Shown piece after piece: positions 43,698-64,000 of a stretch of 64,000 nt of DNA; within the stretch, counting starts at the first letter, position 1; each line of letters begins with the position of its first letter. Position numbers and translations under genes: made by a program. Under the pieces are notes generated by a model. That model ran no database searches. It worked only from the letters and a program-made list of their open reading frames with translations, and was not told the origin of the DNA. The stretch is from Podospora anserina (Eukaryota): NCBI GenBank assembly GCA_017654855.1, contig CM030336.1, forward strand, positions 248,001 to 312,000, given 5' to 3'.

Positions 43698-45385
43698 TCA
43701 AGCCTGCCCCTCTTCCTCGGACTTATAAGGCGGATCTTCCTGGTACAGGTGGTACTTGTACCGACTGCCCTCATGATCATCTCTTAACCCATTTTGGCCC
43801 TTCCCATAAATCTTCTCCCTAGCCGTCACCGGTTCCTCACTCGGATCAGGCAGCTCAGGATAGACCCCCCTCCTCCTCAGCTCGGGAATTAACAAGTCCA
43901 CCACCTCTTCAAATGTCCCCGGTGTGGTCACATACCCAATGTTAAACCCGTCCACATCAGCCTCCTTGACCCACCGTTCCAGCTCATCCGCAACCGTCTG
44001 CGGGCTTCCCACGCTGACTGGGCCAAGCCCGCCGATTGCCGCGTGTTCAGCCACCAACCTCGGCGTCCATCTAGGGTGTTCCGTGCTGGCCGTGGTGAAG
44101 TTGTCGAGAATGCTCGTGACCTTGTGTGCCTCGACACTATCCTCCTTGCTTATCTCCTTGTCAAGCGGTAGCTTTGACAGGTCGATTCCTGTCCAGCCGC
44201 TCACCAGCACCAGACCTCCAATGGTGGAAGCATACTTCTTGAGTTCTTTCAACTTCTCTTGGGCGAGCTCATCTGTATCGGCAACAATGGGCGTGAAGGT
44301 GGCGAATACCTTGATGGATCTCGGATCACGGCCCTTTTGGGCGGCCAAGGCGCGGATGGCGTCGATCTTTGGCCTCAAGACTGAGGGTGAGTGACCAGAG
44401 ACAAAGATGGCTTCCGCGTGGGTGGCGGCAAAGTCGGAGCCTGCCGAGGAGGTGCCCGCTTGGAAGAGGAAGGGAGTGCGTTGAGGAGAGGGGTCAACGA
44501 TATGCTTCGCGTCGAGAGAGAAATATTTGCCTTTGTGGTTGATGGTGCGCACTTGGGCCGGGTCGACGTAGCTGTCGTTGGCTGGGTCTGGGGAGAGGGC
44601 GGTGGGGGACCACGAAGATTCCCATAGCCTGTGGACAGTGTTAGTTTGGGCAAATTATCACGACCCTAAGACAAGACGTACTTGTAAAGAACCCGGAGAT
44701 ATTCATCTGCTTGACGGTAGCGTTCGTCGTGTTCAATAGGATTGTCGAGGCCAATGGCCTTAAAGGCGGACTTCTTCCAAGACGTCACTATATTCCAACC
44801 GATACGACCCTGTGTGAAGTGATCCAGAGTCGAAAAGCGTTTGGCTAGAAGATAAGGTGGCTCAAAACTGGTCGAGGCTGTGATGGCAAACGACAAATTC
44901 TTGGTCACTGCTGCCATGGCTGAGATGGGCTGGAAATCCTGTCAATGGATGGTTCACAATCCCATGAAAAAAAAAAAAGAAATGGGAAAGACTGACAATT
45001 GTTGGGTCGGTTATTGGCCATTGTGCCGCTCGCCTGATGCAATTGTCAACGCTCCCTTCGTATGTGTCGTAGCCACCATATGTGTCGGCGAGGAACAGAG
45101 CGTTGACCCCTCCCCTCTCAAGAAGTTTGGCGAGTTCAATCCAGTAATCAAGCCTGCGCTTGGTTGCCGACTTGTCAACTGGATTCTGTTTCAGTTATCA
45201 GTACAGTGGTTCAAATCGCACAGTACATGCATAGCAGGGGTTTATCGTCGCACCTTCCATTGTCCTGGAGACAGGTGCCCGACAGTGCTCATATCGAAAG
45301 CATTGATGAGGATGTGTTTCTTGCCATTCCCAAGCTCATGATGAGCCCCGTTGGGGGCTGGTGGTTGTTGGTTTGTGTTCGACAT
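43698..45385 (-). CDS. FMNH2-dependent luciferase-like monooxygenase, DmoA/DszA/NtaA family (paralog 1, 499 aa)
   Basis: HILINAFDMSTVGHLSPGQWK; LFLADTYGGYD; AKRFSTLDHFTQGRIGWNIVTS; PSPQRTPFLFQAG; GWTGID; DVDGFNI. Introns 45253-45186, 44996-44930, 44681-44629. Confidence 0.92.
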
Positions 45386-45606
45386 TCTAACTTGTGATTT
45401 GTGGAAAGGAAGAGTGGAATGTGAAGAAGAGTAGTCGCAGCTTGAACCAACATGAGAGTCGGAGAGTCAAATGTTTATATATAGAGGCATATAATGAATC
45501 CAGAATGTCTTGTACCAAACCAGGGCCATTTGCATGAGGTACAAGGCTTGCCGGTTCGCAGCAGGGAGGGGTTTATCTCCGAATTCATGTTGTAATTCAC
45601 CGGCCG

Positions 45607-45616
45607 ATGGTGTCAT
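45607..45616. promoter_or_regulatory. CYS-3/MetR consensus site ATGGTGTCAT upstream of monooxygenase 1
   Basis: Exact ATGRYRYCAT match about 220 bp above the ATG, beyond a TATATATAAA box near 45474-45483. Confidence 0.5.
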
Positions 45617-45928
45617 GCATTGTCCCGGCAAACTGCAGCCACATTCCTGCCAATGATGAACCATCAGAATGGCGTCGTATTACGGATTGAAGACAAATTC
45701 TTAGCCTCATGCACACCGCGGTAGACCGGTCATCTCATCTTCAGCAATTACAAGGCCAGCAGAACCGAACAATCACCATGTCAGCCCAACTCCAGCATGA
45801 GACGTTTCAGTGGTGTTCTATTGTGGCAGACTGCAAAAAACCCAAAACGCTATGTTATGTGTGGAATAGCTTCAGAATAGATGGTATGCAAGACCATCCA
45901 ATAGAGAAAAAAAGAAATCAAAAAGATG

Positions 45929-46013
45929 TGCCCCCACGCGGGATTGAACCGCGGACCTCATCATGTCACAGAATGTTTACGAGTGATGCGCTCTACCACT
46001 GAGCTATACGGGC
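45929..46013 (-). tRNA. tRNA-Thr(CGT) with a 13-nt intron
   Basis: GCCCGTATAGCTCAGTGGTAGAGCGCATCACT-CGT-A[AACATTCTGTGAC]ATGATGAGGTCCGCGGTTCAATCCCGCGTGGGGGCA, followed by oligo-T terminators. Confidence 0.92.
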
Positions 46014-46099
46014 CTCTAGAACTAAGTTGATGGCAAGTTCAAATTTTCGGTTCATGACTCGACAAGGCTCACCACAAACTTCCCATTGTCAATGGCTAT

Positions 46100-47694
46100 T
46101 CACAATCCCTTGTCGTCGCTCTTCAAGCTCGGTGTTTCCGCTGACGACGCCCGCTCCTCCACGAACTCCACTTTGGAGGTGCCAAACTCGCGCACAACCA
46201 ACCAAGCCGGGAAGATGGCGATGGCCCACAGTCCAAAGTTAATGTAAACACCCCCAACCTCAGCAAAGACCACGAGCGAAGTGAGGCCGTAGCTGACAGC
46301 CTGCCACGCCGATTCGGTTCCCCGCAGAAGCGCGGCATAGCGGACCACCTCCGACTCATCTTTGGCCAAGTTGTGGATGATGAAGTACAGAAACATGTAG
46401 TTCAGCTGGAAGCCAACGGTCAAAAACACGAAAACACCGAAGCCCTCACCGAAGTTCCCGTCAACCCAGTCGAACGTTGGTCTGGTGACGCGATAGCGGG
46501 TGACAAGAACCGTCGCCCACGTCCACCAAGCGCCCTGCAGAACCACAATGACCCAGAAGCTGGAGCGAGCACGAGTCTTGAGAGCAATTCTTGTGCGATC
46601 AATCCAGGCCTATCATGATACGGCTGCTGTTAGCCTGATTGAACAAATTGAAGGTGGAACGAAGATGGAACTTACACCGAGTATCCACCCCGAAACAACA
46701 GCAATGATGCCAGACAAGAACGATCCCAAAGCACGAGATCGGACAGAGAACCACACTGTTTCCTGTTAGTTCTTTTTCCTCGCTGTCGACTGTCAAGACC
46801 AAACTTACTAGCAAGATAGGTGAAGTAGACTGCCTCTGCAAAGACAGCCTGCCCGATGAACAACACCATCAAGAGAAACTTCTTGCCCAAGAACAGTCTC
46901 GCCGTCTCCTTGAGCTCAAAGAGAGGACCGCGCGTGATGGCCAGCTCCACCTTCTTGCCATCTGTTCTCTCGACCTTGTCCGGTGCATTGAGCAAAAATC
47001 CGAAGAGGGGACCAGTGCACTGCATTGCAATAAACACCAGGAAGACTGTGTATGACACTTTGCCAGCCTCGCTGTTCTTGGCATTGAGACCAAGGTTGAT
47101 CGCACCGCCCAGAATCTGACCAGCCAGTCGATATGTCAGCCAGTAGCCGATAGCTTTGCCCCTGTTCCAAGGCTCTGGATAAGCAATGGCAATAGCAGCC
47201 TCGGCCATCCAAAACACACCGGCCGAGATACCGCAGAGCGCAGCACCCAACAAGACGAGCCATTCGGTCCCGAAGCGGTTATTGGTGTAAAGGCCCGCTG
47301 CATATGGCGCGTAACCGATCCTGCTCAGAGTCAGTCGTCAGAGTCCAACCGACAAAATCTCCGCCTTGCTATTCCCCAGGGCAACGCACGTTCCGAAAAT
47401 AAGAGCACCCTTGATCCCGACGTAGTGCACCAAAGTACTGGAGAAGTAGCACGATACCACCATGAGACAGAAAGTCAGAGCATTGGCTGCATTGATGAGC
47501 TGTGGTGAGGCAGCGCCGCCGGCCCCAAGCGAGTTCATGGCGCCCCAAATTCCCGGTGCCGCCAGATTGCACAAACCCAAAACGGTCATGTTCCAAAAGG
47601 TGGAACGGTACCATTTGACCGGATGCAATTCAGATTTGGGAGGCTCGGCTTCAACCTCATTGTGACGCGAGACGGTGTTGTCGTGGAAGGCCAT
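46100..47694 (-). CDS. MFS transporter, UNC-93-like (DUF895)
   Basis: WYRSTFWNMTVLGLCNLAAPGIWGAMNSLGAGG; GVFWMAEAAIAIAYPE; RYAALLRGTESAWQAVSYG; 2 introns. Confidence 0.85.
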
Positions 47695-48505
47695 TGTGCC
47701 TTGACTGTCTGGAAACAGACTTGCTGGAAGGCTCGGGGAGCAAAAACAGGAAATGGTAAGGGGTGATAACAAAAGATTCTTTCTGACATGGAAGTCTGGA
47801 TGACACCTGGGCAGTTTTATCTTTGCGCAACAGTTGCACGCACCTCGGTACTCACATATCCAGTTCTTCAGGAAAGCAATTAGCGGGTGCTGTTCAGTCT
47901 CGCTGAGGTAATCAGACCTCAGCGGTGAAAGGTAGGAGCTATAGTACCAGGAAGGAAGCCTTGGATCTTGAGCTGGACCGGTCTCGGCTTCTCTTGCGAA
48001 CAATGATCAATAAGCACGCAATGCTCCCGAGACGGCAAGGCAACCTCAACCCCCACACCCGGAAGCCTGGTAACTTGGCGATAGCGCCACCCGCGCCGTT
48101 GTGTCGTCTTGAACCCTTGTTCACAACCGGTCGTTATATCCGGTGAGCATGAGGACTCGGGCCCGGATTTACCTTCCACTTCTGGTTTTGACGTGTACCA
48201 GGCTTGCGGTAGGATTGGGCATGGTAAAGCCTGTGATGGTGACACAAGCAAGGTGATCCGGGCTAAAATGACGATATAATACCAGATCCGCGGAACCGAA
48301 TACGTTGAACATTGACGACCGGACACACCACGGCTACCTGGTAAGGTACCTTGGGTAGGTACCGAATTCTCCTGGGTGCGTACTATCGTCGGGAGCTCAC
48401 AGAACAATCCACCCCACACGAAAGAGGCCTTCTTTGACAGTAAATAATTGAACATTCATAGGTTTCAAATTTCTCGACAATCATGCAATTCATACTACGA
48501 GTAAT

Positions 48506-50508
48506 CTAGGGTAGATCCCACCAACTCTCATGCAGGTCCTTCAGATTCACCTCCCCCGGTAATCGCAAGTATGAGGTCATGTCCGAGTTCTCATCTGCCT
48601 CCTTGCTTGTCCAGCCATTCCCGAAATACCATGCAAACCGATTGCCCTCAGGCCCGAGATACGTGTACTCCCAGTCCTCCCATCTGGGCTCTCTTCTCAC
48701 AGCCGTGACATGGCCTGCGCTTCCTGGCCAGATGCCGTGGATTCTACCGCCTGGACGCCCGCCATTGTACCAACTGCTACAATTATCACTAAGAACAGTC
48801 GAGGTAAAAAAGGCATCAGAGTACTCGACGAACTCATCAGCTGCTCTCCTGGATGGCTGGATGCTCTTGATCCCCTCTCTTGCTACCTTCCTCAGGATCT
48901 TGGCGAAACACACCAGTTGGACCTCGACGGAATGCGGGACAGTACCCGACGGACCTGTTCCGTGGGGACCATGGACGAACAGCAAGTTGGGGAAGCCTGG
49001 GGTGGCGAGACCAAGATAGGTGTACGGGAAGCCATAGCCAGTCTTTGACTCTGGATCCCAGAGCTCCCTCAACTCTGTCCCATCCTGTCCCTTGATGGGG
49101 AATGGTGTCACCATGTCCACGTTCGCACCCGTCGCGCAAAAGACAGCATCGACCTTCCTTTCTCTGCCATCCACTGTGACGATTCCATCTTCTGTGAACC
49201 TCGCGATCCGCGAAGTGATGTACTCGACATTATCTTCCGAGATAGCCTCCAGGTATCCCGGCCCTGGTGTCAGGCGTCTGCAGTTTGGTGAAAAGTCTGG
49301 AACGATGTGCTCCAACAACTCTGGCTTCTTCTTCAACCTCTGCTTCATGATCTCGATGAACCTTTCCCGAAGATCAATGTTCGTCTCCGACCCCCTGAAG
49401 AAGGCGGAGAACCTCCTCCAGTACTTGTCTTCCAGCTCTTTTCTGAACTTGAGGTACGCCGTCGGATCCCTCGCAAACAACTCCTTCTGCTCCTCAGAAT
49501 AAGGCTGAGGACCAGCAGTCCGTTCATCACCCGCCCAGCTGCCTGCAATCCAAGTCTTGTTTCTCGCATAATGATCCAACTGCTTCACCCTCTTTTGCAG
49601 ATTGGCCACCAGCTGAATCCCAGAGGCACCATTCCCAATCACCGCCACAGTCTTGCTGTCAACATCAAACTCCCCATCCCAATGTGATGCGTGTCTCAGG
49701 TGGCCCTTGTACGACTCGATCCCTTCGTAGTCTGGCAGCTTCCAGGCGTTGAACCGCCCAATGGCGTTCAAGACAAAGTCGAACTCTTCGACCTTTGGTC
49801 CTTCCTCCTCTTTGTGTTGGGTGCTGACTTTCCAGACTGACTTGCCCGCATCCCACTCGAGTGACTGGACTCTGGTGCCGAATCGTGCGAGCCGGTAGAC
49901 ATCGTGCTTCTTGGCGACAGATTGCCAGTAGTCTCTGATCTCGCCGCCGGGGGCGAACTGGTCGGACCAGTCGGTTTTGGGCTCGAAGGTCGATTGGTAG
50001 ACGTGGGAGGGGATGTCGCAACGGACGCCGGGGTAGGTGTTTTCGAGCCAGGTGCCGCCCTGTTGGTCAGGTCACGGGTTAGCACTTATACGGGAGGAAG
50101 GCATTTGCAAGAACACCTCATCTTGGGACTTACAAAGTCGTCGTTCTTCTCAAAGATGGTCAGTTGGATGTTGGGGACTTTGGCAGGAAGCAAGATGCCA
50201 GCTGTGATTCCCGCTAGACCACCGCCGATGACAGCTACTTTGAGGGCACGGGGCTGGTCAATGAAGCGGTCGACGAGGGAGATTCGGGACTTGGGATATG
50301 TAGGGATCCGCTGGGGAATCGTTGTGGTGGAAGGGGGCAGCCCTGGTGAGGTTGCTGGGGTATAGTGGTCTGAATGGGAGTCTGAGTTGGTGTCGCGATC
50401 TGACGAGGACAGCTCGGGAACCTCCAGGGCGGAGATTGACAAGTTGGACAGTTTCTCCGTAGCGTTGATGGCCGCTACGGGGTCTGGGAGGGTTGTTATG
50501 GTGGCCAT
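48506..50508 (-). CDS. FAD/NADPH-dependent Baeyer-Villiger-type monooxygenase (642 aa)
   Basis: VAVIGGGLAG, GGTWLENTYPGVRCDIPSHVYQ, fingerprint YKGHLRHASHW, VAVIGNGASG, CRRLTPGPGYL; intron 50133-50060. Confidence 0.9.
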
Positions 50509-50961
50509 GATGTTTGGGTGTCTAATTCAACGAAGTCAACAGAATCGAAATCGCACCACAAACAAGCACTCGATGCGCTACAGCCTCTCTAATACCTGCT
50601 ACCAAACCCTCGCGGACAGGTGCACACCCTCCATCACATCTCCAAGGCCCTCTATGCCACCATCATGCAGTCATAAATGTCGTGATCTGATTCCCCGGCC
50701 CCCGCCTTCGCTCTCTTCACGCCAGCTTCCCGATAACCCTCTCCCGGAAGCCGACCGGCAACATGAACAATAACACCATCCGCGGGGTCAATGCCATCAT
50801 GCCTCTGTACCAGTTTCCTGCCCTGTTCGTTGTCCCCCACGCTGCTCGTTGATCCACAGCACCGAAGATCCCGCCTCCTTATTCCCGGACTCCATCACCA
50901 GGTACCAATTGGAAGGATGACAATAATTCTTGGGAGTGCAGTGACACCAACGACAACTTCA

Positions 50962-50971
50962 ATTGCGCCAT
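50962..50971. promoter_or_regulatory. ATTGCGCCAT box in the divergent BVMO / Seo1-like promoter
   Basis: Identical 10-mer also at 59337 and 59596; one mismatch to the CYS-3 consensus. Confidence 0.5.
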
Positions 50972-51908
50972 GTTGTGTCACTTTAGCATGCTTTTAGAGG
51001 TTCCACTCAGGTGTTCACTATGCAGAAAGGGGGTCGGTTGGTAGATCGAACTGCTAACGGGGTACGGGGTTTGGTGCCGATTAGCGTTGGATCAGGATGG
51101 TGTGATTGACGCGCGGTTGAGCTTAGAGGACTAGCATAGGCGGGTCTTGGCTTTATGGGGAGTTCATCGGGGGCAGCGAGGATGAAAGTTTTGTTGTGCA
51201 TTCACAATCTGCTGTGTCAGTGAGCTTTTCAGTAGTATGAAGTCCAGTTCCAGTCTCGATGTAAATATGGGGCAAAAAATAAAGAGTGTTGGGGGCCATT
51301 CAGGGGTAATCACCGTGGTTAAAACCCTAACCCTTCCCAGCAATGGGATACTCGAGCACCACTGCTTTTGCATCCTTCCACGTTGAGGTACTTGGCTGTG
51401 GTAAAATCCAATTGTGATGGGAATTTTCAAGCTTCATTCATCAAATATTGCCGGAACAATCTGTGCAAACAGTCGCTAACATCTCCACAAGCCAAACATC
51501 CCGCCTTTCGGTGGTAGAGGGACCAATCTCCAAACCACCCCATCCCGAGCAACAGTTTTGTTCAATGGTTTAATGGTCGTGAGTCTCGAGAAGATTCGTG
51601 ATCCTGCAAAAGGCTGTCGCCACAGAGCCGTAGTCCCTGCACCATCCAATAGTGACAGCCGACTTGGGCTTGCAGCTGGTAAACCCCAGTTTCCTGGGAC
51701 CCTTTACGTTGCCGAAACATTGTGCTACATGATCAGAGACAAGTTGATCCCCGACTTAAAAGTGACGTCGTCCGCATAACCACGCATCTCTTCACCTGTC
51801 AAAGCTGCAAGAAGCCGTTTCCTGTCAAGTCCAGACCGTTATTGCCAACGGTGACCCATTCCATTGGGGCTTGACGTCGATCCTTTCTATCCAGCCCCGG
51901 CAGTCAAC

Positions 51909-53462
51909 ATGACAACCAAAACCTCATCACCAGAGAAGCGAAAATGGTACCAGATACAATGGTTCCAACCGCAAGACACGCCTCGCGAGAGGAAACTTAT
52001 CAACAAGCTCGATCTCCTGATTGTGCCCTACGCCTTTTTGGCATATTGGGTCAAGTACATGGACCAATCCAACCTCAGTATGCCTTCTATCACTGCCTCA
52101 AGCCCGAGTTATACTCACACCTACTAACACGACACAGACAACGCCTACGTCGCCGGCCTGAAAGAAGACCTCGGCTTCCAAGGCAACGAGCTGGTCCAGC
52201 TCCAGACAATGTACATCATCGGCGCCGTCCTCGGTCAAATCCCATTCATGTTCCTCTTCACCTACGTCCCCATGCACTGGGTCATTCCATTCCTTGACGT
52301 CGCCTGGGGCATCTTCACTCTCCTGCAGTACAGAGTGACGGGCTTTGCCGAGCTGGCCGCCTACCGGTTCCTCGTCGGGTGGTTCGAGGCGGCCTTCTTC
52401 CCGGCCATGCACTACATCTTTGGGGCTTGGTACCGGAGTGATGAGATCGCTCGGAGAGGTGGTGTTTTCTACCTTGGGCTGACGCTGGGAACGCTCACCG
52501 CGGGGCTGATCCAGGCTGGCGCGAGCCAACGTCTTGAGGGAGTCAAGGGGTTGGCGGGGTGGAGGTGGATGTATATCATTTGTGCGCTCATCACCATTCC
52601 GATTGGCATCATTGGGTATTTTGTTCTCCCCGGGACACCAGACAGGCCGAACGGATTACTGTTGTCGGAGGAAGATGTCGCTGTTGCCAAGGAGCGTCTG
52701 CAGAGAGATGGCCACGTCACCGAGGGAAAGTTCTCGTGGAAGGGACTGGCCAAGATTGCAAAGACGTGGCACTTTTGGGGGTTGATCTTGTTTGACGTAC
52801 TCTTCTGGAATGGAAGCATAAACACTTCGACCGGTGGCTATCTTCTCTGGATCAAGAGTCTGGGGAGGTTCTCCAAGGCGAGGGTGAACGAGCTTGGCAC
52901 CATCTCGCCGGCGCTGGGTATGTTTTACACGGTGGCGATCTGCTTCGCTTCGGATTTGGTGTTGGGACCGGCGTGGGCTATCACGGTGGCTCATGTCTGG
53001 AATATCATTGGTCTGATCATTCAGGTTATCTGGGAGGTGCCGGAGGGTGCGTTGTGGTTTTCCTTCATGACGACTTACAGCGCTGTGGCTATGAGTTCGG
53101 TATTGTACGGATGGGTCAACAGTCAGCTCAAGGCAGCCCCAGCGGAAAGAGCATTCACGTTGGTTCTTATCAACACTGTTGCTCAGAGCACTACGGCCTG
53201 GACGCCTCTTTTGGTCTTCAAGACGGTTGAGGGACCGAGATTTACCAAGGGTTACTCTTTCGTTTTGGCCAACGCCGTTTGTTTGATTGGCATGGCGCAT
53301 GTGTTGAGGATATATCTTGCTAAAAAGGAGTAAGTTTTCGAGAGATAACCTCATGAACCGACGCTAACACTCTGCCACAGCGCCAAGAGAGCAGACGCCG
53401 AATCTGGGTCAACGACGGGGACATCACTGGCCGAGGGCAACAAGGCGGCTGAGAAGATTTGA
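51909..53462 (+). CDS. Dal5/ACS-family MFS permease, Seo1-like (putative sulfur-compound uptake)
   Basis: KLDLLIVPYAFLAYWVKYMDQSNL|NNAYVAGLKEDLGFQGNEL; WYRSDEIARR; LEGVKGLAGWRWMYII; resembles yeast Seo1 from memory; introns about 52078-52137 and 53330-53380. Confidence 0.82.
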
Positions 53463-53495
53463 GACGCAGTATTCGATTAGTTATTTATCTCCAAC

Positions 53496-54293
53496 TCATC
53501 TTCCACAGTTCCTGGTCGAGCAAACAGTATTCTCGTGAATATACCGAATCTCCCCCGACTCCACCCTGATCAAGTTGTTCGTCTGCGTGCCCGGATGTCT
53601 CGGGATAGCAGCGTCGAGAAAAGGGAACAGATGGAAGATATCCACCGCGCCCAATTCCTCGTCAATTGTGTACCGCTGATTGCTGACGTTGAACGGGGGC
53701 GGGAAGTTGAGGAGGCAGTTGCTGGTGATGTAGAAACCTCCCTCAAGACGGGCGCAGTTCTTGGCAAAAACAGGCTTGACGGTATGGTTGCCCCATGCAT
53801 CGATGTACGCGTCTCCCGCTGCTTTGAGAGCCTCCCGAGATTCACGCTTTTCCACTGGGACAGGGGCCCAGCTTTCCTGTCGATTGTAGATCAGGGACCC
53901 AGTCGCGTTGAACAGCCAGTCGCCTGTGTCACACACGATTGAGTCGATGTGTGTAACCTTGCTGTCGGTGAAAGCAAGCCTTGTGCCAATGACGTAGGGG
54001 TGTTCTGTGGTGGCGACGATTTCGGTGTATGAGGCGCATTGGGTGGTGTCGTAGATGCTGAGGTTGAAGTCGATCTTGATGCCTTGCGACAGGACCCCTG
54101 TGGTGATGTTCACAAGAGCGTCGTTCTCGTAGTAGTCGACATCGCTCGATAGTGTCGAGAAGGTCGGCTCTCCAGCAGTGAGTGCATCCAAGTATTCTGC
54201 CGTTGCAGCCTTCAGGAAGTCTCGGGTGCAGGGAGTTTGGCCCAGAACTGGCAAAGCCAGGGCGATGCTGGTAAAGAGGAGAGAAGGCAACAT
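53496..54293 (-). CDS. Secreted fungal protein of unknown function
   Basis: Signal peptide MLPSLLFTSIALALPVLG followed by CTRDFL..YYEN..HPYVIGTRL..GDWLFNAT..CARLEGG; 265 aa, intronless. Confidence 0.75.
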   Translation of the reverse strand: MLPSLLFTSIALALPVLGQTPCTRDFLKAATAEYLDALTAGEPTFSTLSSDVDYYENDALVNITTGVLSQGIKIDFNLSIYDTTQCASYTEIVATTEHPYVIGTRLAFTDSKVTHIDSIVCDTGDWLFNATGSLIYNRQESWAPVPVEKRESREALKAAGDAYIDAWGNHTVKPVFAKNCARLEGGFYITSNCLLNFPPPFNVSNQRYTIDEELGAVDIFHLFPFLDAAIPRHPGTQTNNLIRVESGEIRYIHENTVCSTRNCGR

Positions 54294-55719
54294 GATGGCG
54301 GTCGAGACGCTAGAAGCGGTTACTGTCTCTTGGTGAAGCTCAACATGTTGAAAAATCACTTCCCCATACTTGAATTTGTACATGGCAGGAGGTTGTTCTT
54401 TGGGGTCAAATGAGGGGGTGACCATCTCGAGTGCCGTCCCGCTGAGATTTAGCCGTCATGTATATGAGAATTCGGCGTTAGAAAAGCAGCATCCTTACCA
54501 GGAGGGGCACAACGGCAAATGGGATTGCTCAATCATTGTTGTTTAAAGCCGCCATAAACCCTCTGATCACCCGGTGAGGGGAGGGAGTCGTGCATAGTCC
54601 CTGAACTGCCGAGTTCACAATACTGTAAACTAATCAGAGCTTCTAGGGTCATGTCAGTATGTGCGAGTTGTTGACAAGCTTTCAGGGGCTCAGGGGTTTT
54701 TTGACAACTGGAGGGCACGGACCATACTCTGGTCTTGGGGGGTGACGTCGGTTGACTTGGTAACAAACTGCGAAAGTTTCCCCGTCGTCAGCAAACGTGC
54801 AAACCAGGGGCGCGGAAGCCGGGCGACCCGGCCCCGATCGCTGACAGGGCTGAAGAAGGGCAGGTTGGAGCAGCAAACCTGGATCGTCGCAAATCGGATC
54901 CTTCGTCCAAAGCCTGGCATCTTGGCACCTCAATTTCGCCAATCTCCACCACTTATCTTATCGGCCCCCATTTGCTGCAACAACGAGGCCCAGTACCACC
55001 ACCAAGAACGGCCCGCAGGTCTACCAAACACATTGCGTTCCTCGAGCCGCATGACCAACTTGGGCACCTACAATGTTAATAATCCGAGGTCGAAACCTCG
55101 AGTCCGAATCGCCGCCACCACCGTCCCCTCCGGGCACTGGGGGTCTCTTCGTCGGCCACCCATGAATGTGGGAAGGATTTTGGCCTAGTGTTTCAAAAGT
55201 CGCCGTCGGTGCCAATCGCTGTATGTGGTGGGCGCTTTCCTCTCTCAGCAACGCGTCTTGCTGTGCCGCAGCTAGTGGCACTGTTTTTGGCACGTTAACC
55301 GTTGAGTTTGGACGCCGAGTATGCCCAGAGACTCCAGATCGGCCCTAGCGCACACTGTGCAACGGTTTAGACCACCAAAGATGTGCAAGACAAGCAGGGA
55401 AGCAGGGGGCGGAGTTTGGGGCTTGTCTTGAACTCAACATTGACGGCCAAGAACTCCAGATTTGTCGGCGAGCCACTCACGGTGCGACAGAAGGTGCTGC
55501 TTTTTTCTCCCTTGCCCTCACTCCCCATGGAGCTTCTTCCTCATCTCTCTCCTCTTCCGCCTTGATGGTTGAAGAAATCTAATGTTGCCCAACTCACTCT
55601 CAACATATTGATAGCTTTTTGAGTGCCAATGAGCCTCCGCGGTTCAGAGTCATCTGATATTTGCAGTTCGGATCTGAGGAGGAATCCAAGTGGCCTGGTG
55701 GTCACGAATCATTGACACG

Positions 55720-57497
55720 ATGTCGGGAATCCTTCGGTCAAAATATCGAACGGCACTTCCGCTCTTCCTTTCAATCTTTCAAGGCCTGGCCGAGGCAGTG
55801 TCACCTGTCTCCATCAAAGGAACAAAGTTGTACGATGAAAGCGGCGCTCAGTTTTTCCTCAAAGGTACTACCTGTTGCCCATTCCATCTTGCTCTCAGAC
55901 TGACATGATCCAGGCACGGTATATGTTGCTGGGGATAATCGCAATGATCCTTTATTGAACACGACCCAGTGCCAGATAGATGCAGAACATCTAAAGAATG
56001 TTGGCGCCAATGCAGTCTACATTTACAGCATCGATGTCTCCAAGCTCGGTCAGCATCGAGGCTGCATGGAGGAGTTCGACAAACAGGGGATTTATGTCTG
56101 GCTTCAGCTGGGACAGCTTCCCATGGTTCTGTCTAGGGTTTGTTTTTCTGACTCGTAAATGTTGGTAACAATTCACGTATCTAACACAGTTTCTTCAGAG
56201 CGATAACACTCCCAGATGGGACCTCGGCTTCTACAACACCTGGACCTCAATAATCGATTCGTTCTCCGAGCACGATAACCTCTTGGCTTTTGGAATCGGG
56301 CAGGAAACGATCAACGGCACGTCCGTCACAACATTGGTGGCCCCCTCTGTGAAGGCCGCCGCCCGTGATCTGAAGCTGTTCCGGGACAAACGAGGATACA
56401 GACCGATACCCATCAGCTACACTGCCGGAGACTTTGAACAATATCGTCTTCTGACAGCTCAGTATCTCACCTGTGGGCCCGCCGAGTCTAGCGTAGACCT
56501 TTACGGCATCAACATCTTCAACAACTGCTCTGACGACAAGCTTGACCGTCTGCGGTCCGAGTTCTCCAACCATCACACCCCGGTCGTGTTCGCCGAAGAC
56601 GGCTGTTTTCCAGAGACCCGCGAGTTTTCCGAAGTCCAGACTTTCTTTGGGGAATCCGAGTTCTCACGAATCTTCTCTGGCATGAACATCTACCAATGGG
56701 GACGCAATGAGTTCGGATTTGCTCTTGTTGTCTATGGTGACGAGGCCGACCGAAACCTCGGCCAACCCGGTACATTCTTGCCAGCATACACATCTCTCCA
56801 GCAGGTTTGGAGCGAAACCGTTCCCCAGTCCACCTCCCGAGATGCCTATACCTTTTCATCGACACAACTACCTTGCCCGACAGCTAACCCCCAGGTCGGC
56901 TGGTTGGTGGATAGAGCTGCTGCATTGCCGGTGATATCGGGATTAGACATCAACACCGTGACCGCCCGTACGAGACGAACCAGACCAACGACGTCCACCT
57001 CAGCAACGGCAGTGCCCACTGAAAGCGGGGACAACTCTAGGGACAACTCTAGGGACGAGGAGGTCCTCGCCAGTAGTGGCATGTCCGCAGGCGCGATTGC
57101 CGGGATGGCCATCGGTATTGTCGCCGCCGTTGTTGGTGGAGCAGGTGCTGCCTTTTGGTTTTTGCGGAGACGGAAATCTCGTCAAGGGGAGCCCGATGAC
57201 CACAACGGCCCTTATGAGAAAGCTGCGGCTGATTCTGATCGTCTCTCAACTGCCAAGACTGAGCTGCCTGACCAAGAGAGAGCTGCGAATGAACTTGAGG
57301 GCAGGTTCCACTATCATCAACTACCAGTAAAGACGGATTGGAAGTACCCTCTCGAGGCTGGTAGTAAACCTGTCAGTGAACTCCCTGATGGAGCAGGTCG
57401 GCCTGGAAATCATTTTGAGTTGGAGGGGAGCCCAGTGCATGGGCCGGGGTACAACCCGGGAGCAGAGTTGCCTGCGCCTGCACCTGTACCGAAGTAA
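55720..57497 (+). CDS. Divergent GH72 (Gas/Gel) beta-1,3-glucanosyltransferase-like protein with a single TM helix and cytoplasmic tail
   Basis: Signal peptide; VSIKGTKLYDESGAQFFLKG, DPLLNTTQCQID, KAAARDLK, RPIPISY, YLTCG, DLYGINIF, PVVFAEDGC, FSGMNIYQW; then an S/T stalk, AIAGMAIGIVAAVVGGAGAAFWFL-RRRK; two introns. Confidence 0.85.
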
Positions 57498-57732
57498 TCA
57501 AACTTGACAAGACGCGTCAATCTTTGTTTGTTTCAATTTTGCACACCAACATTTTCTTTCTTTTTCTTTCCGTAAATAATAGCCTACTTTACTTTGTATC
57601 CCAGCTTGTACAAATAAAACCCTTTGAAGAAAACAGCGCCCCGAGGAATGTGCACAACCCAAACAAACAAACATTGCCCCTTTTTAACCGCTAAACGACA
57701 GCTTGACAAGCGCGTCTCGCACTAACAAAACA

Positions 57733-59135
57733 TTACACCCGCACAACCAGCTTGCCACCACTGATTTCACCCTTCCTCATCCGATCCAGCGCCTTGTTGA
57801 TGCTGCCTAACCCAGACTCCACGTCAATAATCTCTGGCGGCTGCACCAACCCTTCCTTCAGCAACCTCTCCAACCAACTAACCAACGCCTCACCCACCGC
57901 CGGCACCTCATGGAACAACTTGATGGGCACAGTATGGAAAAGCGTCCCCTCCGGCGCCGTCTGCTTAGGCAAGCCCGTCAACCCAATCAAATGCGCACTC
58001 AACAACGTCGAGTCATGCGGCGTCGACGGCGGGCTCGGAGGCGCCTCACCCTCTTTTAAGAGTGGCTGCTCACCACCACCACCCAGATTATCCGGCGATA
58101 AAGCCTGCAGCAGACTCGTCGCCGATTCCCTTCCGCGGGTATCGATCCCGAACCTCAACTTGCCCTTCAGATTCCCCTTGATGATTGCTACCGCTCTTTC
58201 CGGGTCGTGGCTGTCGACCAGCAAGTCGGTCCTGATAGCCTTGTGGTTCGCCAGCCGGAGTCCGTGCTTGGCCTTGTCCACCACGGCAACGGTCTTCAAC
58301 CCTGCCAGCTTGGCCAGTTGGATGGTGAGGTTGGCGGAGGTAGACGATCCGCCCCAGACGGCGAGCCAGTCCCCCTTTTGGGCGCGCTCATGGGAGCGGA
58401 TGCCATCTAGGCACTCGGCGCGGATGTCCTCTGCTATCCTGTCGGCGGGGAGGTCGCGGACGAGGGAGTAGAGATCTGGTCCGTCGAGAACATGAGAGAA
58501 GTCAAGGCCGGCGCAGACACCCAGGGCGAGGGCTGCAGCGACAAAAGCGACGCCGAGGGTGGAACCTTCTTCGATGGAGAGGGATGGGGGGAGGCGGACG
58601 GTGTTGTAGTCGAGTCCGATGACGTATTCTTGGTAGGCTGCCTTGCGGAGGTCGCGGTAGTCGGTGGAGATGACGAGGACGCGATCCTTTTCCTGAAGGC
58701 GGGTGGAGGAGGAAGAGGGGGCTTGGATTACTGTGCCGGCGAGCTCGCGGCCGGAGATGTAGGGGAGGGTGGGGATAGCGAAGTTGAAGTCACTGATTTG
58801 GTGTCAGTGAGACCTTCAGATTAGGCAGACAGAACGAGATGAACTTACGGAGCCTTCCAGTCGATGGGGTTGAGACCAATGGCCTGGGTGCGGACCAAGA
58901 CTTCGTGCTCGTCTTGGAGTTGTGGGACTGGGTAGTCGTCTGTCAACTCGTAGGGTTGCCGTGCAGCATGCAACAGCAGGACCGTCTGGGTTTCTGGTGG
59001 AGGGGTGAGGGGTTCATCTGGCCGGACTGGGGCTTTCTCTGCCTCTGTGAGGTTGAGACTGTCAAGCTTGGGGCTTGATAGCGACTTTCTGAACTTGTGA
59101 AGAGACATTTTTCGGAGGAAGGACGTTCCACTCAT
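57733..59135 (-). CDS. Zn-independent MDR oxidoreductase (enoyl-reductase / quinone-reductase-like, 448 aa)
   Basis: EVLVRTQAIGLNPIDWK|..PYISGRELAG..AYQEY..WLAVWGGSSTSA..GEISGGKLVV; intron 58848-58793. Confidence 0.88.
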
Positions 59136-59316
59136 TGTGTCTCTCGAGCTGCTGTAGGCTGGCACCGGCAGAGCTTGTCTCTGATCAAAGAAACCAGTAC
59201 GACTCGACTTCGAGCTGCCGCAGTAGGGTAGGCAAGATAAGGGATGTTGAGAAGGTGATGTCAGCACGGGTAGTACCGCAAAATCCGACCGAGATTTGTC
59301 AACTTAAGTAGTCGAA

Positions 59317-59346
59317 AGACACAACTACGCGCTCAGATTGCGCCAT
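59317..59346. promoter_or_regulatory. Composite element: 20-bp motif AGACACAACTACGCGCTCAG abutting ATTGCGCCAT
   Basis: Lies in the divergent MDR / monooxygenase-2 promoter; the 20-mer recurs (19/20) at 63941-63960. Confidence 0.55.
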
Positions 59347-59595
59347 CATGGTATTTGTATCTATTGGTCTCTCTCTCTCTGGGTCTCAGATCTGGATGTC
59401 CACTTGGTGTCACAGCCTCGACACACCCCCACACAAACTGCAAAGAAACACCAAATCCCACCATCTCCACAGATTAACGGGAATAAATCCAAGATTCACC
59501 TGCCATCTCAGCTTTCGGGATGGCCTCCGGTCCGGGGGTGGTCTAAGGTGGACTTGGCGATGAGGCGGCCGCTATGAGCATCATTCCCCACGTCA

Positions 59596-59605
59596 ATTGC
59601 GCCAT
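59596..59605. promoter_or_regulatory. Second ATTGCGCCAT box in the MDR / monooxygenase-2 promoter
   Basis: Exact repeat of the 10-mers at 50962 and 59337. Confidence 0.5.
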
Positions 59606-59858
59606 CGCCTCCCGGCTCCGGGACCCATCCAACAACCACGGTTCCTGCCGATCCACATTCGGCCCCATCCACGGCGATGGCGGCATGATGTGATGCCCTT
59701 TGGTGCCGTCCATATGTAGGCCCTGCCTGCAGCTTGCAGACGATGCCGACATATCTCCAGGATTCCCGCACGGCGTGATAAGCAAGCAACCAGCCTCTCA
59801 ACCAAGACACTCACTATCCTCTTTGGACGCATCTCGCTGGCACCTCTCATCCCTCACC

Positions 59859-61610
59859 ATGGCTGCTACCACCCCAGCTGTTCAGACCAGGCAAAAAAAG
59901 CCACTCATCGTCAATGCATTCGTTGAAATGTGTACGTATTCATTACCAGAATCAATCCCACTTGCTTGCATGAAAGAGGCACAGAAGACCCAGCTCAGCT
60001 CAACTGAACGCTTGCTAATGCTTCTGTTGGATTTCAGGCAGTGGGCACCAGTCCCCAGGACTTTGGCGGCACCCTGACGATGAGTCCTGGAAGTTCAATG
60101 ATCTTGACCATTGGGTTGAGCTTGCCAAGTTGCTAGAGGAGGCCAAGTTCCACGGCATTTTCATTGCTGATGTTTTGGGTGAGTAACAAGCCCCCTTTTC
60201 CAACCCCTGACTTTGAACACAAGCAAACAACACTGACACAACCGCAATAAAATAGGTGGTTATGATGTTTACAAGAATTCTCTGGACCCTGCTGTCATCA
60301 GCGGCGCTCAGTGGCCAGTGAACGAGCCTCTCTCCGTGGTGCCAGCCATGGCGGCGGCGACCAAGAACATTGGTTTCGGCGTCACCATTTCCACCACCTA
60401 CGAACAGCCGTACCATCTTGCCAGACGGCTTGCCACAGTCGACCATCTCACCAAGGGAAGGTCAGTTATTTTTGCCCCTTTCACCCACCCTCTGTCTCCA
60501 AACTAACACCACCTCCAGACTCGGCTGGAACGTCGTAACCTCCTACCTCGACTCCGCCGCCCGCAACATCCACGGCAAGGCCACCCAGCTCGCCCACGAC
60601 GACCGCTACGCCCAGGCGGAGGAGTACATGAAGGTCATGTACAAGCTCTTCCAGTCCTCCTGGCGCGACGACGCCGTCATCCTCGACCGCGAGAGGGGCA
60701 TCTACACCGACCCTGCCCTCGTCAGAGAGATCAACCACAAGGGCAAGTTCTTCGACGTCCCCGGTCCCGCCATCACCCAACCCTCCCCCCAGCGCACCCC
60801 CTTGCTCCTCCAAGCCGGCACCTCCCGCGCCGGCAAGATCTTCGCCGCTCAGCACGCCGAAGCCATCTTCACCTCCGCTCACTCCCCGGCCGTCTGCGCC
60901 AAGAGCATCACCGAGATCCGCGAGCTAGCTCGTACTGAGTTCGGCAGAGACGGGAACAAGATCAAGGTTCTGGCTTTGGTCACCCCGATTCTGGGAAGGA
61001 CAGAAGAGGAGGCGCAGGCTAAACACGCCGAGTACCGCAAGTACGCCTCGACCGAGGGTGCCCTGGCTTTGTTTGGCGGTTGGACAGGCATCGATCTTGA
61101 TCAGTACGGTGACGATGAGGAGCTGAGAGAGGTCGAGAGCAACGCTGTCAAGTCTACTGTCACTGGGTACGCCAAGTTTTCGCCGCAAAACTCCAAGTGG
61201 ACGAAGCACACTGTTGCTGAGCATGTTGCTATTGGTGGGAACGGGCCGATCATTGTTGGTACGCCCGAGCAGGTTGCCGATGGGTTGGAGAGGTGGGTGG
61301 AGGAGGGTGGGGTGGACGGGTTTAACTTTGTGAGTTTGTTCTTGCTTATTGGTGAAGAGAGTAACAGAGCTGACAGGAGACACAGGCTTACGCTCTCTTC
61401 CCGCAATCCTTCAAGGATATCATCGAGCTGCTTCTCCCAGAGCTGCGGAAGCGTGGTCTTTTCTGGGATGACTACGCCGTCCCAGGCGGCACATATCGCG
61501 AGAACTTCTACGGTGAGCCTGGACAGAAGCACCCACTACCTGAGCACGTTGCTGCCAAGTTCCAGTGGAGGGCTGGCGTGCCAGCGGAGGAGCACCAGAT
61601 TCCGGAATAA
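59859..61610 (+). CDS. FMNH2-dependent luciferase-like monooxygenase, DmoA/DszA/NtaA family (paralog 2, 484 aa)
   Basis: [101 protein letters not shown]. Introns 59932-60037, 60179-60255, 60461-60518, 61330-61385. Confidence 0.93.
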
Positions 61611-61751
61611 CTGGGGAAAATTCTCGATATCTTGATATACAGAAGAGACATATACACACTATGATGATCCCATCCTGCTCCGGTCCATCTGTGCATCCAA
61701 GTCCCGAAAGGACTTTACGTTATCATGAGGCATAAAGTAATAGTTAAAAGG

Positions 61752-61958
61752 GGCTATTACTATCCTTTTAAGCCTATTGACCACCTTCTAAGACCCATTA
61801 TTATTTTTGAAGCGCTATTAACAATCTTTTAACACCTATCAACTATCTTTAAATGTATACAGATTATCTCTCAAGGCCTATCAATTCACCTTTAACGTCT
61901 ATTCATTACCTATCAAGGCCTATAAAGCATATCTCAAAGGATACCAGCTATCTCCCAA
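61752..61958. repeat. Degenerate AT-rich 21-bp minisatellite (about 10 units)
   Basis: Seven consecutive 21-nt units (61812-61958, e.g. CACCTATCAACTATCTTTAAA, GGCCTATCAATTCACCTTTAA) preceded by three 20-nt units. Confidence 0.8.
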
Positions 61959-62076
61959 GCCTCCCTTGACGGGCAAAGATGGAGGTCTAGGCAGGCACAA
62001 CCTTAAACCCTGTGGCTTCTCCTCTTAACTCGAAAATATAAGGGTATCATATCTGATTCATTCTATATATTACATC

Positions 62077-63450
62077 TCACCACTTCACTCCCCAATCCCA
62101 CCCTTTTACTCGAACTCGGACCCAAAAGAAACACCCAAATGCGCCAACATAACTGGCGATAGCAAACACAAGTGGTCTCCAATAAGCCCTTCTATCCGTC
62201 TCTCCTCCCATGTCTACCAGGCCGCCGGCGATAGGTATTCCTGTCAAACATGCCAGGCTGGCAAAGGTGTAGGAAGTGGCGTAATACCGACCATAATCAT
62301 GCGTCTCGCACAACTGGCCCAAACAGATGGGCACCAACGTGATGTTGGAGCCACTGACAAGACCAAACAAGACTGCAAACCCCGTTATCAGTCCAGCACC
62401 ACCACCTCCATCTTGGCCGAGCGCATCGGGGAGCCAGAAGCAGGCGACAGACACGAGGCAGATAGCAATGGATACAACCATCGTGTTGTAGCGACCTGCT
62501 TTGTCGGCGATGTACCCAGGCAGATATCGCCCAATACAAGACGCCCCATTGATGATGGCAAGAAGCTGGTACGCGAACGCTGCATCACCTCCAGCGTCAG
62601 CATCCTCGGCCAGCCCCTGACGAGCGAGATAATAGCTTGGTATGTATGACACCGGGACAAAGTACGCCCACTCGATGAAGAAAACCCCAGCAGTCGTAAA
62701 TGCCATCGCTCCTGTACCATCAAGAAACATGCGTGGGTTGGGCAGCATATCTCGCCACGTAGAGGATGCCTTGGCCTGTCTGATCTCAAGACGACTTCGA
62801 CAAAGGAGCACACTGGCAACGCAAAGTACGAGCAGCACAAAACCGACGATTCTCATGGCCCATGCCCATCCGACCTTGGGCACCAGTGACTGCATCATCA
62901 AGGGCCACATGACACCCCCCAGTGCGCTCCCCACAAAGGCAAACCCACTGGCTGTCCCTCGTCGCTTGTCAAACCAATGTGAAATGGCCCCGATAGCAGG
63001 TGTGAAGAGAAGGGAACACCCAGTGCCGGTGAGGATGGAGAAGGCAAGGATGAACTGGTAATACTCGGTGCACTGAGCGGTGGTAAAGATGCCGACAAGC
63101 AGACAGACAGTCCCGAGAGCCATCAGTCCCTGGGGACCGTGTCGATCGAAGACGGGGCCGATCTGCACGCCGCAGAAATAGGAGACAAAAACAAAGATGC
63201 CAAAGATCCACCCGATGGCTTGGTTGGAGTAAGTCGGCAGTACAGTCGTTGCGACGAGGGCCTGGAACATGCCGACTGAGTTGACGAGTCCCATGCCACA
63301 AGTCATGGCACACCATGAACCAAAGGCCACGCTCCAGGCTTTGAAGCCGCCTTCGGGGTAGGTGATTTTCTTGGGGTCGACATTTTGATCTTCCGAGTCT
63401 TCTGGTGTGTTGATGGGTTTCTCAGTCGCAGGAGGCCCTGAAGTGCTCAT
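62077..63450 (-). CDS. MFS monocarboxylate-porter family transporter (Mch4/Mch5-like)
   Basis: YPEGGFKAWSVAFGSW; GPVFDRHGP; HWFDKRRGTASG; GRYLPGYIADKAGRYN; 12 TM segments, intronless. Confidence 0.9.
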   Translation of the reverse strand: MSTSGPPATEKPINTPEDSEDQNVDPKKITYPEGGFKAWSVAFGSWCAMTCGMGLVNSVGMFQALVATTVLPTYSNQAIGWIFGIFVFVSYFCGVQIGPVFDRHGPQGLMALGTVCLLVGIFTTAQCTEYYQFILAFSILTGTGCSLLFTPAIGAISHWFDKRRGTASGFAFVGSALGGVMWPLMMQSLVPKVGWAWAMRIVGFVLLVLCVASVLLCRSRLEIRQAKASSTWRDMLPNPRMFLDGTGAMAFTTAGVFFIEWAYFVPVSYIPSYYLARQGLAEDADAGGDAAFAYQLLAIINGASCIGRYLPGYIADKAGRYNTMVVSIAICLVSVACFWLPDALGQDGGGGAGLITGFAVLFGLVSGSNITLVPICLGQLCETHDYGRYYATSYTFASLACLTGIPIAGGLVDMGGETDRRAYWRPLVFAIASYVGAFGCFFWVRVRVKGWDWGVKW

Positions 63451-63637
63451 GGTGCTGGCCGCAGTCGGCGGGAGGGGGGATCAGGTCGGGTGCCTGATTG
63501 GTAATATTTCCGGAGAAGCAGTAGCTGTCAGGCTCAGATACTTTCCTGTTGAGCTTGATAGTCAATCCCATGTGAGGTAGGAAGGTGCGAACATTGAAGG
63601 TGCTCACTCACTTTGTTGACAAACACTCTCATGATCG

Positions 63638-63647
63638 ATTGCGTCAT
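63638..63647. promoter_or_regulatory. ATTGCGTCAT box upstream of the MCH-like transporter
   Basis: One base from ATTGCGCCAT; about 190 bp above the ATG. Confidence 0.45.
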
Positions 63648-64000
63648 TGGTCAAACCGATACCACATCGGCAGGAAAGAGCATCGACTGTCCAAACCAGT
63701 CGGCGGAATAGACTCAGTGATTATTGAGAGGATGAGCAGAAGTTCGCGCGGCTATGGTGTTTAATAACTGCCATTTTCAGGGAATCCCGAAAGCTCGCAT
63801 GTTCTCAAGGTAACAGTAGGTCAGGTTCACCGCACTCGATGATTTAGGCCGCGGCCTTTGACCATGTCGATCATGACGATCCACCGCATCCCATCGAGAT
63901 CTCTTTCTGTAAGTAAGAAGATGGAAATAGCACCAATCAGAGACACAACTACGCGATCAGTTACAGGTCTATACTGACTGGTATCGAGTATTTAAGGTCG

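Follow-up and report, generated by a model that had tools for sequence, protein, structure and literature searches.

A conserved gene cluster in Podospora anserina with two DmoA/DszA-like monooxygenases as a probable route to carbon-bonded sulfur in filamentous ascomycetes

What does a filamentous fungus gain from keeping two FMNH2-dependent luciferase-like monooxygenases (LLM1 and LLM2), a flavoprotein resembling Baeyer-Villiger monooxygenases (BVMO), a medium-chain dehydrogenase/reductase (MDR) and several major-facilitator-superfamily (MFS) carriers side by side? The question is raised by a 64,000-nucleotide stretch of Podospora anserina DNA (assembly GCA_017654855.1, contig CM030336.1, positions 248,001 to 312,000 of the forward strand), hereafter the window, in which these genes occupy about 20 kb. 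An earlier note on this DNA had proposed that they scavenge organosulfur compounds under sulfur starvation and do not serve secondary metabolism. Four independent lines, namely the published regulation of the Neurospora crassa counterparts, synteny, promoter sites and the depletion of Met and Cys, agree with this proposal and make the sulfur-starvation reading a well-supported one. With a probability of roughly 0.7, we conclude that the genes form a cluster conserved in filamentous ascomycetes which is activated by a basic leucine zipper (bZIP) protein of the CYS-3/MetR type when sulfur is scarce, and which takes sulfur from compounds with a carbon-sulfur (C-S) bond (thioethers, sulfoxides, sulfones). 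The data that support this conclusion are the gene content, the conserved linkage, the promoter sites, the sulfur-poor composition and the published Neurospora regulation.

Gene models were obtained by exon chaining, and families were assigned through Pfam, NCBIfam and PDB sequence searches. Transcript evidence was drawn from contigs of four public RNA runs without condition labels, the depth of which cannot rank the genes and in which bins without cover (e.g. 51605-52271) are uninformative; the intron joints that these contigs confirm are canonical GT..AG. From 43.7 to 63.5 kb the order is LLM1(-), a DUF895-like MFS transporter(-), BVMO(-), a Dal5/Seo1-like MFS permease(+), a secreted protein(-), a GH72 glucanosyltransferase(+), MDR(-), LLM2(+) and an MCT-like MFS transporter(-). 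All gene types that had been listed for this region were thus recovered in place, and their partly divergent arrangement was borne out by two pairs, BVMO/Seo1-like and MDR/LLM2.

Huberman 2021 (PMC8550094) classes five consecutively numbered N. crassa genes, NCU05884-NCU05888, as 'CYS-3 bound and regulated', with an induction of about 100- to 1300-fold in the absence of sulfur. Expression, given as FPKM (fragments per kilobase per million), rises between sulfate and no sulfur from 0.82 to 87.6 for NCU05884 (MFS transporter Seo1), from 0.63 to 98.3 for NCU05885 (flavin-binding monooxygenase), from 0.15 to 50.9 for NCU05886 (DUF895 domain membrane protein), from 0.15 to 197 for NCU05887 (oxidoreductase) and from 0.64 to 175 for NCU05888 (dibenzothiophene desulfurization enzyme A), and in the cys-3 mutant none of the five reaches 1 FPKM, while the flanking genes NCU05881, 05882, 05889 and 05890 change about 2-fold at most. 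A single DNA affinity purification sequencing (DAP-seq) peak is common to NCU05884 and NCU05885, and likewise one to NCU05887 and NCU05888, which makes them divergent neighbours like both pairs of the window. The N. crassa genes carry the same five annotations, the same two divergent pairs and CYS-3-type promoter sites; the Podospora locus departs from them by one more LLM (LLM1), by the inversion of a block of three genes and by the insertion of two passenger genes. In the same tables NCU05883, which has no annotation there and is not among the differentially expressed genes of the paper, goes from about 0.2 FPKM to 141-376 FPKM without sulfur and remains close to 0 when cys-3 is mutated. Its position would fit a counterpart of LLM1; it is not named in the main texts of the searched literature. 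Among other Neurospora species, LLM2 is 79% identical to an N. tetrasperma protein (its 5th-ranked match), which is 47% identical to LLM1, and the BVMO is 73% identical to an N. tetraspora protein (its 13th-ranked match), while no Neurospora protein is found among the best 120 LLM1 matches. Related observations exist for more distant fungi: in Trichoderma reesei, methionine represses monooxygenases of the DszA type, a flavin monooxygenase and MFS permeases of the allantoate type (PMC4536894), and in Candida parapsilosis, PF00296 monooxygenases depend on Met4 (PMC11502921).

Is the grouping itself conserved? With the BVMO as anchor, represented by 29 aligned homologues, 80 metagenome loci, flanked by up to 10 kb, were searched with all window proteins. 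Merging copies of at least 97% identity left 65 groups, and counts were taken on the 27 groups in which one flank reaches 5 kb or more. A partner gene lies beside the BVMO homologue in 23 of the 27, most often an LLM of the DszA family (22), followed by the DUF895-like MFS (14), the MDR (7) and the Seo1-like MFS (6); at least two partner families are present in 17, at least three in 7 and all four in 2. Homologues of the secreted protein, the GH72 enzyme, the MCT-like MFS and two genes next to LLM1, a GNAT acetyltransferase and a DMATS-type prenyltransferase, occur in 0 of the 80 related loci, which serves as an internal control of the search. The two loci with all four partner families are L015 and L040. 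The former shows LLM1(-), Seo1-like(-), BVMO(+), DUF895(+), MDR(-) and LLM2(+) in one 13-kb run; with NCU05883 as an LLM1-type gene, the N. crassa annotations would follow this same order. Compared with L015, the window has the Seo1-like/BVMO/DUF895 block inverted and two passenger genes inserted. L015 also holds, after LLM2, another DUF895-like gene, a distant one with 34% identity (13739-15148). Divergent Seo1-like/BVMO pairs were counted in 13 related loci. Adjacent or near-adjacent locus tags (Hte_003404/003405, AAE478_005498/005499, OQA88_3085/3087, PspLS_10795/10798, PWT90_07606/07608, LLEC1_01065/01067) occur in six named genomes, those of Hypoxylon texense, Parahypoxylon ruwenzoriense, Cercophora sp., Pyricularia sp., Aphanocladium album and Akanthomyces lecanii, and homologues of all three enzymes share one 32,767-bp contig in the Dothideomycete Lepidopterella palustris and one 67,905-bp contig in Coniochaeta hoffmannii. 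The flanks of the related loci show no other recurring gene family and are common only to near-identical contigs. As the same families return near the BVMO homologue in independent fungal contigs, the grouping lies far beyond chance, and this conserved linkage of non-homologous genes identifies the locus as a fungal metabolic gene cluster. The co-occurrence that a synteny check had been expected to reveal was thus found.

The promoters were scanned at up to one mismatch with the motif ATBRCGCCATC, which is the N. crassa DAP-seq motif of CYS-3 (PMC8550094). The window holds 14 matches where 5.9 are expected, a number reached by 1 of 100 shuffles, and 7 of the 14, including both exact ones, fall within the cluster promoters, which total 3,648 bp (binomial p 4.7e-6). 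A candidate site in the LLM1 promoter (45606..45616) matches ATBRCGCCATC with one mismatch and the older motif ATGRYRYCAT exactly, and the divergent BVMO/Seo1-like promoter (50509..51908) holds two candidates with one mismatch each (50962-50972, 51096-51106). The only two exact ATBRCGCCATC matches of the window lie in the divergent MDR/LLM2 promoter (59136..59858), at 59337-59347 and 59596-59606, together with one-mismatch sites at 59336-59346 and 59676-59686. In related loci, where some are near-duplicates, at least one site is present in 26 of the 31 regions that separate divergent cluster genes, at a density of 0.92 per kb in these regions against 0.19 per kb elsewhere. Predicted sites of the kind that mark a CYS-3/MetR regulon therefore stand in front of all cluster genes but the DUF895-like one.

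A sulfur-poor composition is an established pattern of proteins made under sulfur starvation. Computed without the start Met, the share of Met plus Cys amounts to 0.60% in LLM1, 0.89% in MDR, 1.24% in LLM2 and 1.25% in BVMO, compared with 2.8-2.9% in the two conserved carriers, 5.9% in the MCT-like MFS and 2.0-5.6% in ten other open reading frames (ORFs) of the window. Orthologues have kept this depletion, with medians of 0.81% (n=76), 1.27% (n=89) and 1.46% (n=114). Promoter boxes and Met/Cys depletion had been put forward as independent support for a role in sulfur starvation, and the seven sites in 3,648 bp and the values of the four enzymes uphold both.

Which chemistry could such a cluster perform? 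LLM1 (499 aa; 43698..45385, minus strand; exons 45385-45254, 45185-44997, 44929-44682 and 44628-43698, with all three introns confirmed by RNA contigs) and LLM2 (484 aa; 59859..61610, plus strand; exons 59859-59931, 60038-60178, 60256-60460, 60519-61329 and 61386-61610, with 3 of 4 introns confirmed) are paralogues with 51% mutual identity that belong to the NtaA/DmoA family of FMNH2-dependent monooxygenases (PF00296, TIGR03860 for LLM1; TIGR03860 for LLM2). Against the TIGR03860 cut-off of 279.7 bits, the main exon of LLM2 scores 317.5 bits; the LLM1 exons, scanned separately, remain below it singly (270.8 bits for the last exon at profile positions 155-412, 124.1 bits for the preceding one at 76-159) and exceed it jointly. 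The closest solved relative of both is the dimethylsulfide (DMS) monooxygenase DmoA (6AK1), with E 2.6e-67 for LLM1 and 1.8e-79 for LLM2 (270 bits across 268 residues), followed by the alkane monooxygenase LadA (E 2.6e-59 and 8e-61) and then by HcbA1, RcaE, BdsA/DszA, YtnJ, MoxC and NtaA. BdsA/DszA ranks below DmoA as a relative (E 1.9e-35 and 8e-36). Numerous LLM2 orthologues are called 'dibenzothiophene desulfurization enzyme A'. Judged by their similarity to DmoA, the two enzymes may cleave DMS into methanethiol and formaldehyde. Neither an acyl-CoA-dehydrogenase-like (DszC) nor a DszB-like gene occurs in the scanned ORFs, so the locus is not a Dsz system; DszB has no fungal homologues (Linder 2018).

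Within the genus, an LLM2 exon is 100% identical to QC763_502260 of P. pseudopauciseta and to a P. comata protein, and the BVMO and LLM2 have 99-100% matches within clusters of 29 Podospora sequences. LLM1 differs: its closest match (region 43698-44654) is PODANS_5_2330 of P. anserina S mat+, merely 87% identical and in a single-member protein cluster. Either LLM1 models are missing or different in other Podospora annotations, or LLM1 diverges more between species. A scan of bacterial genomes with LLM2 returned three weak loci (24-41% identity), none of which has an adjoining BVMO, MDR or MFS homologue. In a Verticillium dahliae paper, genes called 'luciferase-like monooxygenase' are among those given as transferred from bacteria to the fungus; no link to the LLM family was established.

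Type I BVMOs are marked by two dinucleotide-binding motifs and the fingerprints FxGxxxHxxxW[P/D] and [A/G]GxWxxxx[F/Y]P[G/M]xxxD. The translation of the BVMO gene (642 aa; 48506..50508, minus strand; exons 50508-50134 and 50059-48506, with a loose contig end matching 50134-50143 at the intron) holds GGGLAG, GNGASG, GGTWLENTYPGVRCD and YKGHLRHASHWD (Y replaces F), which makes it a class B flavoprotein monooxygenase of the type I BVMO kind. Residues G123, H127 and W131 show no or almost no variation across 29 homologues. The gene has an FMO-like Pfam match (E 1.6e-11), its closest solved relatives are cyclohexanone (CHMO) and phenylacetone (PAMO) monooxygenases (E about 1e-41), and one exon is 99% identical to QC761_502310 of P. 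bellae-mahoneyi. The MDR protein (448 aa, 2 Cys; 57733..59135, minus strand; exons 59135-58849 and 58792-57733, intron confirmed by RNA contigs) is divergent in sequence, with only sub-cut-off matches to Pfam ADH_zinc_N and ADH_N and a PDB sequence match to LovC (E 2e-9). An AlphaFold model of its large exon (pLDDT 83.4) retrieved LovC with NADP as the top Foldseek match (E 1.2e-15, TM 0.67), followed by the CurK and JamJ enoyl reductases and quinone oxidoreductases. The modelled fold confirms an MDR protein of the zinc-free enoyl/quinone reductase branch. It belongs to a small family (83 representatives at E <=1e-30 among 1.84 billion).

Both carriers that are conserved with these enzymes owe their labels to N. 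crassa annotations. The putative DUF895-like MFS transporter (468 aa; 46100..47694, minus strand; 2 of 3 introns confirmed by RNA contigs; MFS_1 at E 2.8e-10 on the middle exon) is so called after the 'DUF895 domain membrane protein' at the corresponding N. crassa position. The Dal5/Seo1-like permease (480 aa; 51909..53462, plus strand; exons 51909-52077, 52138-53329 and 53381-53462, 3' intron confirmed by an RNA contig) matches MFS_1 (E 3.4e-20) and TIGR00893 (E 4.8e-30, 104.8 bits, far below the cut-off of 395); its annotated counterpart 'MFS transporter Seo1' suggests a putative kinship to yeast Seo1p. This yeast protein had been tied to the uptake of sulfur compounds, which holds insofar as it specifically imports gamma-Glu-Met but not in the sense of a general sulfoxide permease (PMC7617739). 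Candida albicans Seo13 carries glutathione (PMC13170222), and both proteins are sulfur-repressed Dal5-family carriers, the transporter family of the window permease. Given these two cargoes, the substrates of the cluster could be conjugated thioethers. Two further MFS genes had been counted in addition to the permease; the DUF895-like one proved to be a conserved partner, whereas the MCT-like one (62077..63447, minus strand; MFS_1 E 3.6e-35, SfMCT E 2.1e-28) is a doubtful member because it is rich in Met and Cys and has no homologue in the related loci. A single CYS-3-type site with one mismatch lies near it at 63637. Plus-strand GT..AG joints at 46243-46328, 46764-46820 and 48374-48461, within or just 3' of the minus-strand DUF895-like and BVMO genes, suggest spliced antisense transcripts, each joint being present in one contig of one run only.

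Taken together, sulfur scavenging from C-S compounds under sulfur starvation is likely to be the function of the cluster as a whole. Substrate, step order and the role of each enzyme we infer from the families. The two MFS carriers, Dal5/Seo1-like and DUF895-like, would import the substrate, the NADPH-dependent BVMO-type flavoprotein would then oxygenate the sulfur atom, and the paralogous LLM1 and LLM2 would cut C-S bonds, which would release a thiol or sulfinate, and from it sulfide or sulfite, together with an aldehyde. The zinc-free MDR reductase would finally handle this carbon by-product or an unsaturated intermediate, and reduced FMN would be supplied by an unlinked reductase encoded elsewhere. 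This particular order of steps, modelled on family chemistry, is a tentative proposal to which we give somewhat less than even odds. More speculative, and in our view rather doubtful, is the idea that the cluster is the missing fungal route to thioether sulfur from DMS, S-methyl compounds and perhaps gamma-glutamyl or amino-acid conjugates entering through the Seo1-like carrier, in which the flavoprotein and the LLMs, anciently bacterial, would turn R-S-CH3 into sulfide or sulfite. It would explain growth of moulds on DMS: Aspergillus fumigatus uses volatile DMS as sole sulfur source in a manner that has no genetic explanation in the available parts of two papers (PMC4807360, PMC6794476), the 2019 one of which proposes an upstream DMS monooxygenase and names no fungal gene for it in those parts.

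Several observations weigh against our interpretation. DmoA cleaves a thioether, DMS, directly, so that S-oxygenation need not precede cleavage, and LadA hydroxylates alkanes, so that membership in the NtaA/DmoA family fixes no sulfur substrate. No flavin-reductase domain, as the partner of a two-component monooxygenase, is present in the scanned window ORFs or as a recurring extra family in related loci, and the partner of the LLMs may be encoded elsewhere; the same two sets hold no desulfinase or sulfite-handling gene. Yeast Seo1p does not transport methionine sulfoxide (PMC7617739), and C. albicans mutants in FMNH2 monooxygenases show no defect on taurine or various sulfonates (PMC13170222). 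At the level of regulation, the DUF895-like promoter has zero sites at up to one mismatch, and its counterpart NCU05886 has the weakest DAP-seq peak among the five genes (PMC8550094). The older, stricter motif ATGRYRYCAT is not enriched in the window (2 matches against 0.88 expected; 26 of 100 shuffles reach 2). Zero partner genes stand near the BVMO homologue in 4 of the 27 groups. Finally, induction by sulfur starvation is published for what are probably the N. crassa counterparts, their orthology being read from how they are annotated and numbered, from the DAP-seq peaks that they share and from homologues in other Neurospora species, and the Podospora contigs show only spliced transcripts.

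Some of these points feed an alternative in which the locus is a regulon island, that is, sulfur-starvation genes that stay adjacent because they share promoters or chromatin, each acting on its own class of substrates in parallel. The order and make-up of the loci do vary, with the LLM as the commonest partner and the MDR and the Seo1-like carrier in a minority of groups, DmoA-type enzymes work without prior S-oxygenation, and yeast Dal5-family carriers import peptides such as gamma-Glu-Met and glutathione that need no oxygenase. We nevertheless regard this arrangement as improbable, although it comes next after a joint pathway, since the BVMO/Seo1-like and MDR/LLM2 divergent pairs recur across many loci, L015 and L040 hold all four partner families, and a linkage kept so tightly between Sordariomycetes and Dothideomycetes is what pathway clusters typically show. 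Far less credible is a role in carbon catabolism or xenobiotic oxidation, in which a LadA-like hydroxylase, an alcohol or enoyl reductase and the BVMO would form a sub-terminal alkane/ketone route with the MFS carriers for uptake or efflux. The rank of LadA as second-closest solved relative of both LLMs and the ketone-oxidising relatives of the BVMO speak for it, but sulfate leaves the N. crassa counterparts silent, and they are CYS-3-dependent and CYS-3-bound (PMC8550094), the enzymes are strongly Met/Cys-depleted, the promoters hold CYS-3-type sites, and no esterase recurs near the cluster in related loci. Like the alkane route, a secondary-metabolite cluster built on the DMATS-type aromatic prenyltransferase (PF11991, E 1.4e-103; 40989-42182, 1.5 kb upstream of LLM1, with the GNAT gene at 42509-43063, 0.5 kb upstream), for which oxygenases, reductase and carriers would be tailoring and export genes, fits the evidence poorly and has next to nothing in its favour beyond this proximity, the frequency of BVMOs, enoyl-reductase-like MDRs and MFS carriers in such clusters and the LovC fold of the MDR, given that neither DMATS nor GNAT has a homologue near the BVMO in related loci, that the 7 kb upstream of the DMATS gene hold no further biosynthetic domains and that the conserved gene set matches the N. 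crassa sulfur regulon in the published tables.

The remaining neighbours can be described briefly. Two passenger genes, absent from the earlier note, split the cluster: one for a signal-peptide protein without Pfam family (53496-54293, minus strand), with 265 aa from the first Met, a signal-like start and 7 Cys, and one for the GH72 glucanosyltransferase (about 55835-57497, plus strand; Pfam GH72 E 1e-33). An intron at 54426-54498, upstream of the modelled start of the former, means that its 5' end is longer than the model. One 4,050-base RNA contig spans 56198-58792, from GH72 into the convergent MDR gene; either the 3' ends of the two overlap, or the assembly bridges them. A palindromic CYS-3-like site with one mismatch per strand (40385-40396) lies about 600 bp before the DMATS ORF. 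The statement that the window has no polyketide synthase, nonribosomal peptide synthetase or terpene core gene stands for the long ORFs scanned, in which no such domain was found, but it had left the DMATS gene unmentioned. Farther away, a HET (heterokaryon incompatibility) domain gene occupies the left end of the window (1382-2116), and the span from 2.5 to 15 kb encodes a Na+/H+ exchanger, a homologue of the mitochondrial calcium uniporter and a transcription factor of the fungal Zn-cluster type; all four are ordinary housekeeping neighbours.

How does the cluster compare with known systems? DmoA of Hyphomicrobium sulfonivorans uses a dedicated flavin reductase, DmoB. The LLMs share its family, but no reductase is linked in the Podospora locus, and while the bacterial enzyme serves growth on DMS, the Podospora setting would be sulfur starvation. 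The bacterial operons dszABC, sfnG/msuCDE, ssuEADCB and the Bacillus subtilis ytmI operon (YtnJ/CmoJ) serve the use of C-S compounds under sulfur starvation; they are sulfur-repressed and combine uptake, S-oxygenation and FMNH2-dependent C-S cleavage. The Podospora cluster follows the same logic, with DszA/BdsA and YtnJ in the LLM family (E about 1e-35 to 1e-40). It differs from these operons in that its S-oxygenase would be an NADPH-dependent class B flavoprotein in place of the acyl-CoA-dehydrogenase-like DszC, its carriers are of the MFS and not the ABC type, the DszB desulfinase and a linked flavin reductase are missing, and an MDR reductase is added. Unlike an operon, it consists of separately transcribed eukaryotic genes under a bZIP activator. 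The operon-like logic is thus bacterial, and the composition of the cluster is new and fungal. Sulfur regulation of fungal PF00296 enzymes is already known, and the N. crassa genes lie within a published data set; fungal enzymes of this kind have been called uncharacterised (Linder 2018). The passages of PMC8550094 that name NCU05884-NCU05888 treat them singly, with no passage on a cluster and no pathway assigned, and for these genes the identifiers and the DUF895 label were found only in that paper within the searched literature. Likewise, the main-text passages available from Amich 2013 and the Fusarium graminearum bZIP007 paper do not mention the cluster. The view that no fungal cluster of this type has been characterised can therefore be kept for the unit, which is undescribed in the searched literature (outside subscription papers, e.g. 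Linder 2012), but not for the sulfur regulation of the N. crassa genes, which is published.

Most sulfur in soil is bonded to carbon. The conserved six-gene unit provides a concrete gene set with a clear regulator that is amenable to deletion and expression studies, and Neurospora knock-outs are available. It also suggests partners for the monooxygenases, namely a BVMO-type oxygenase, an MDR reductase and two carriers, which single-gene studies in Candida could not reveal because of redundancy. If our reading is correct, the cluster would add another example to the fungal gene clusters that serve nutrient scavenging and not secondary metabolism.

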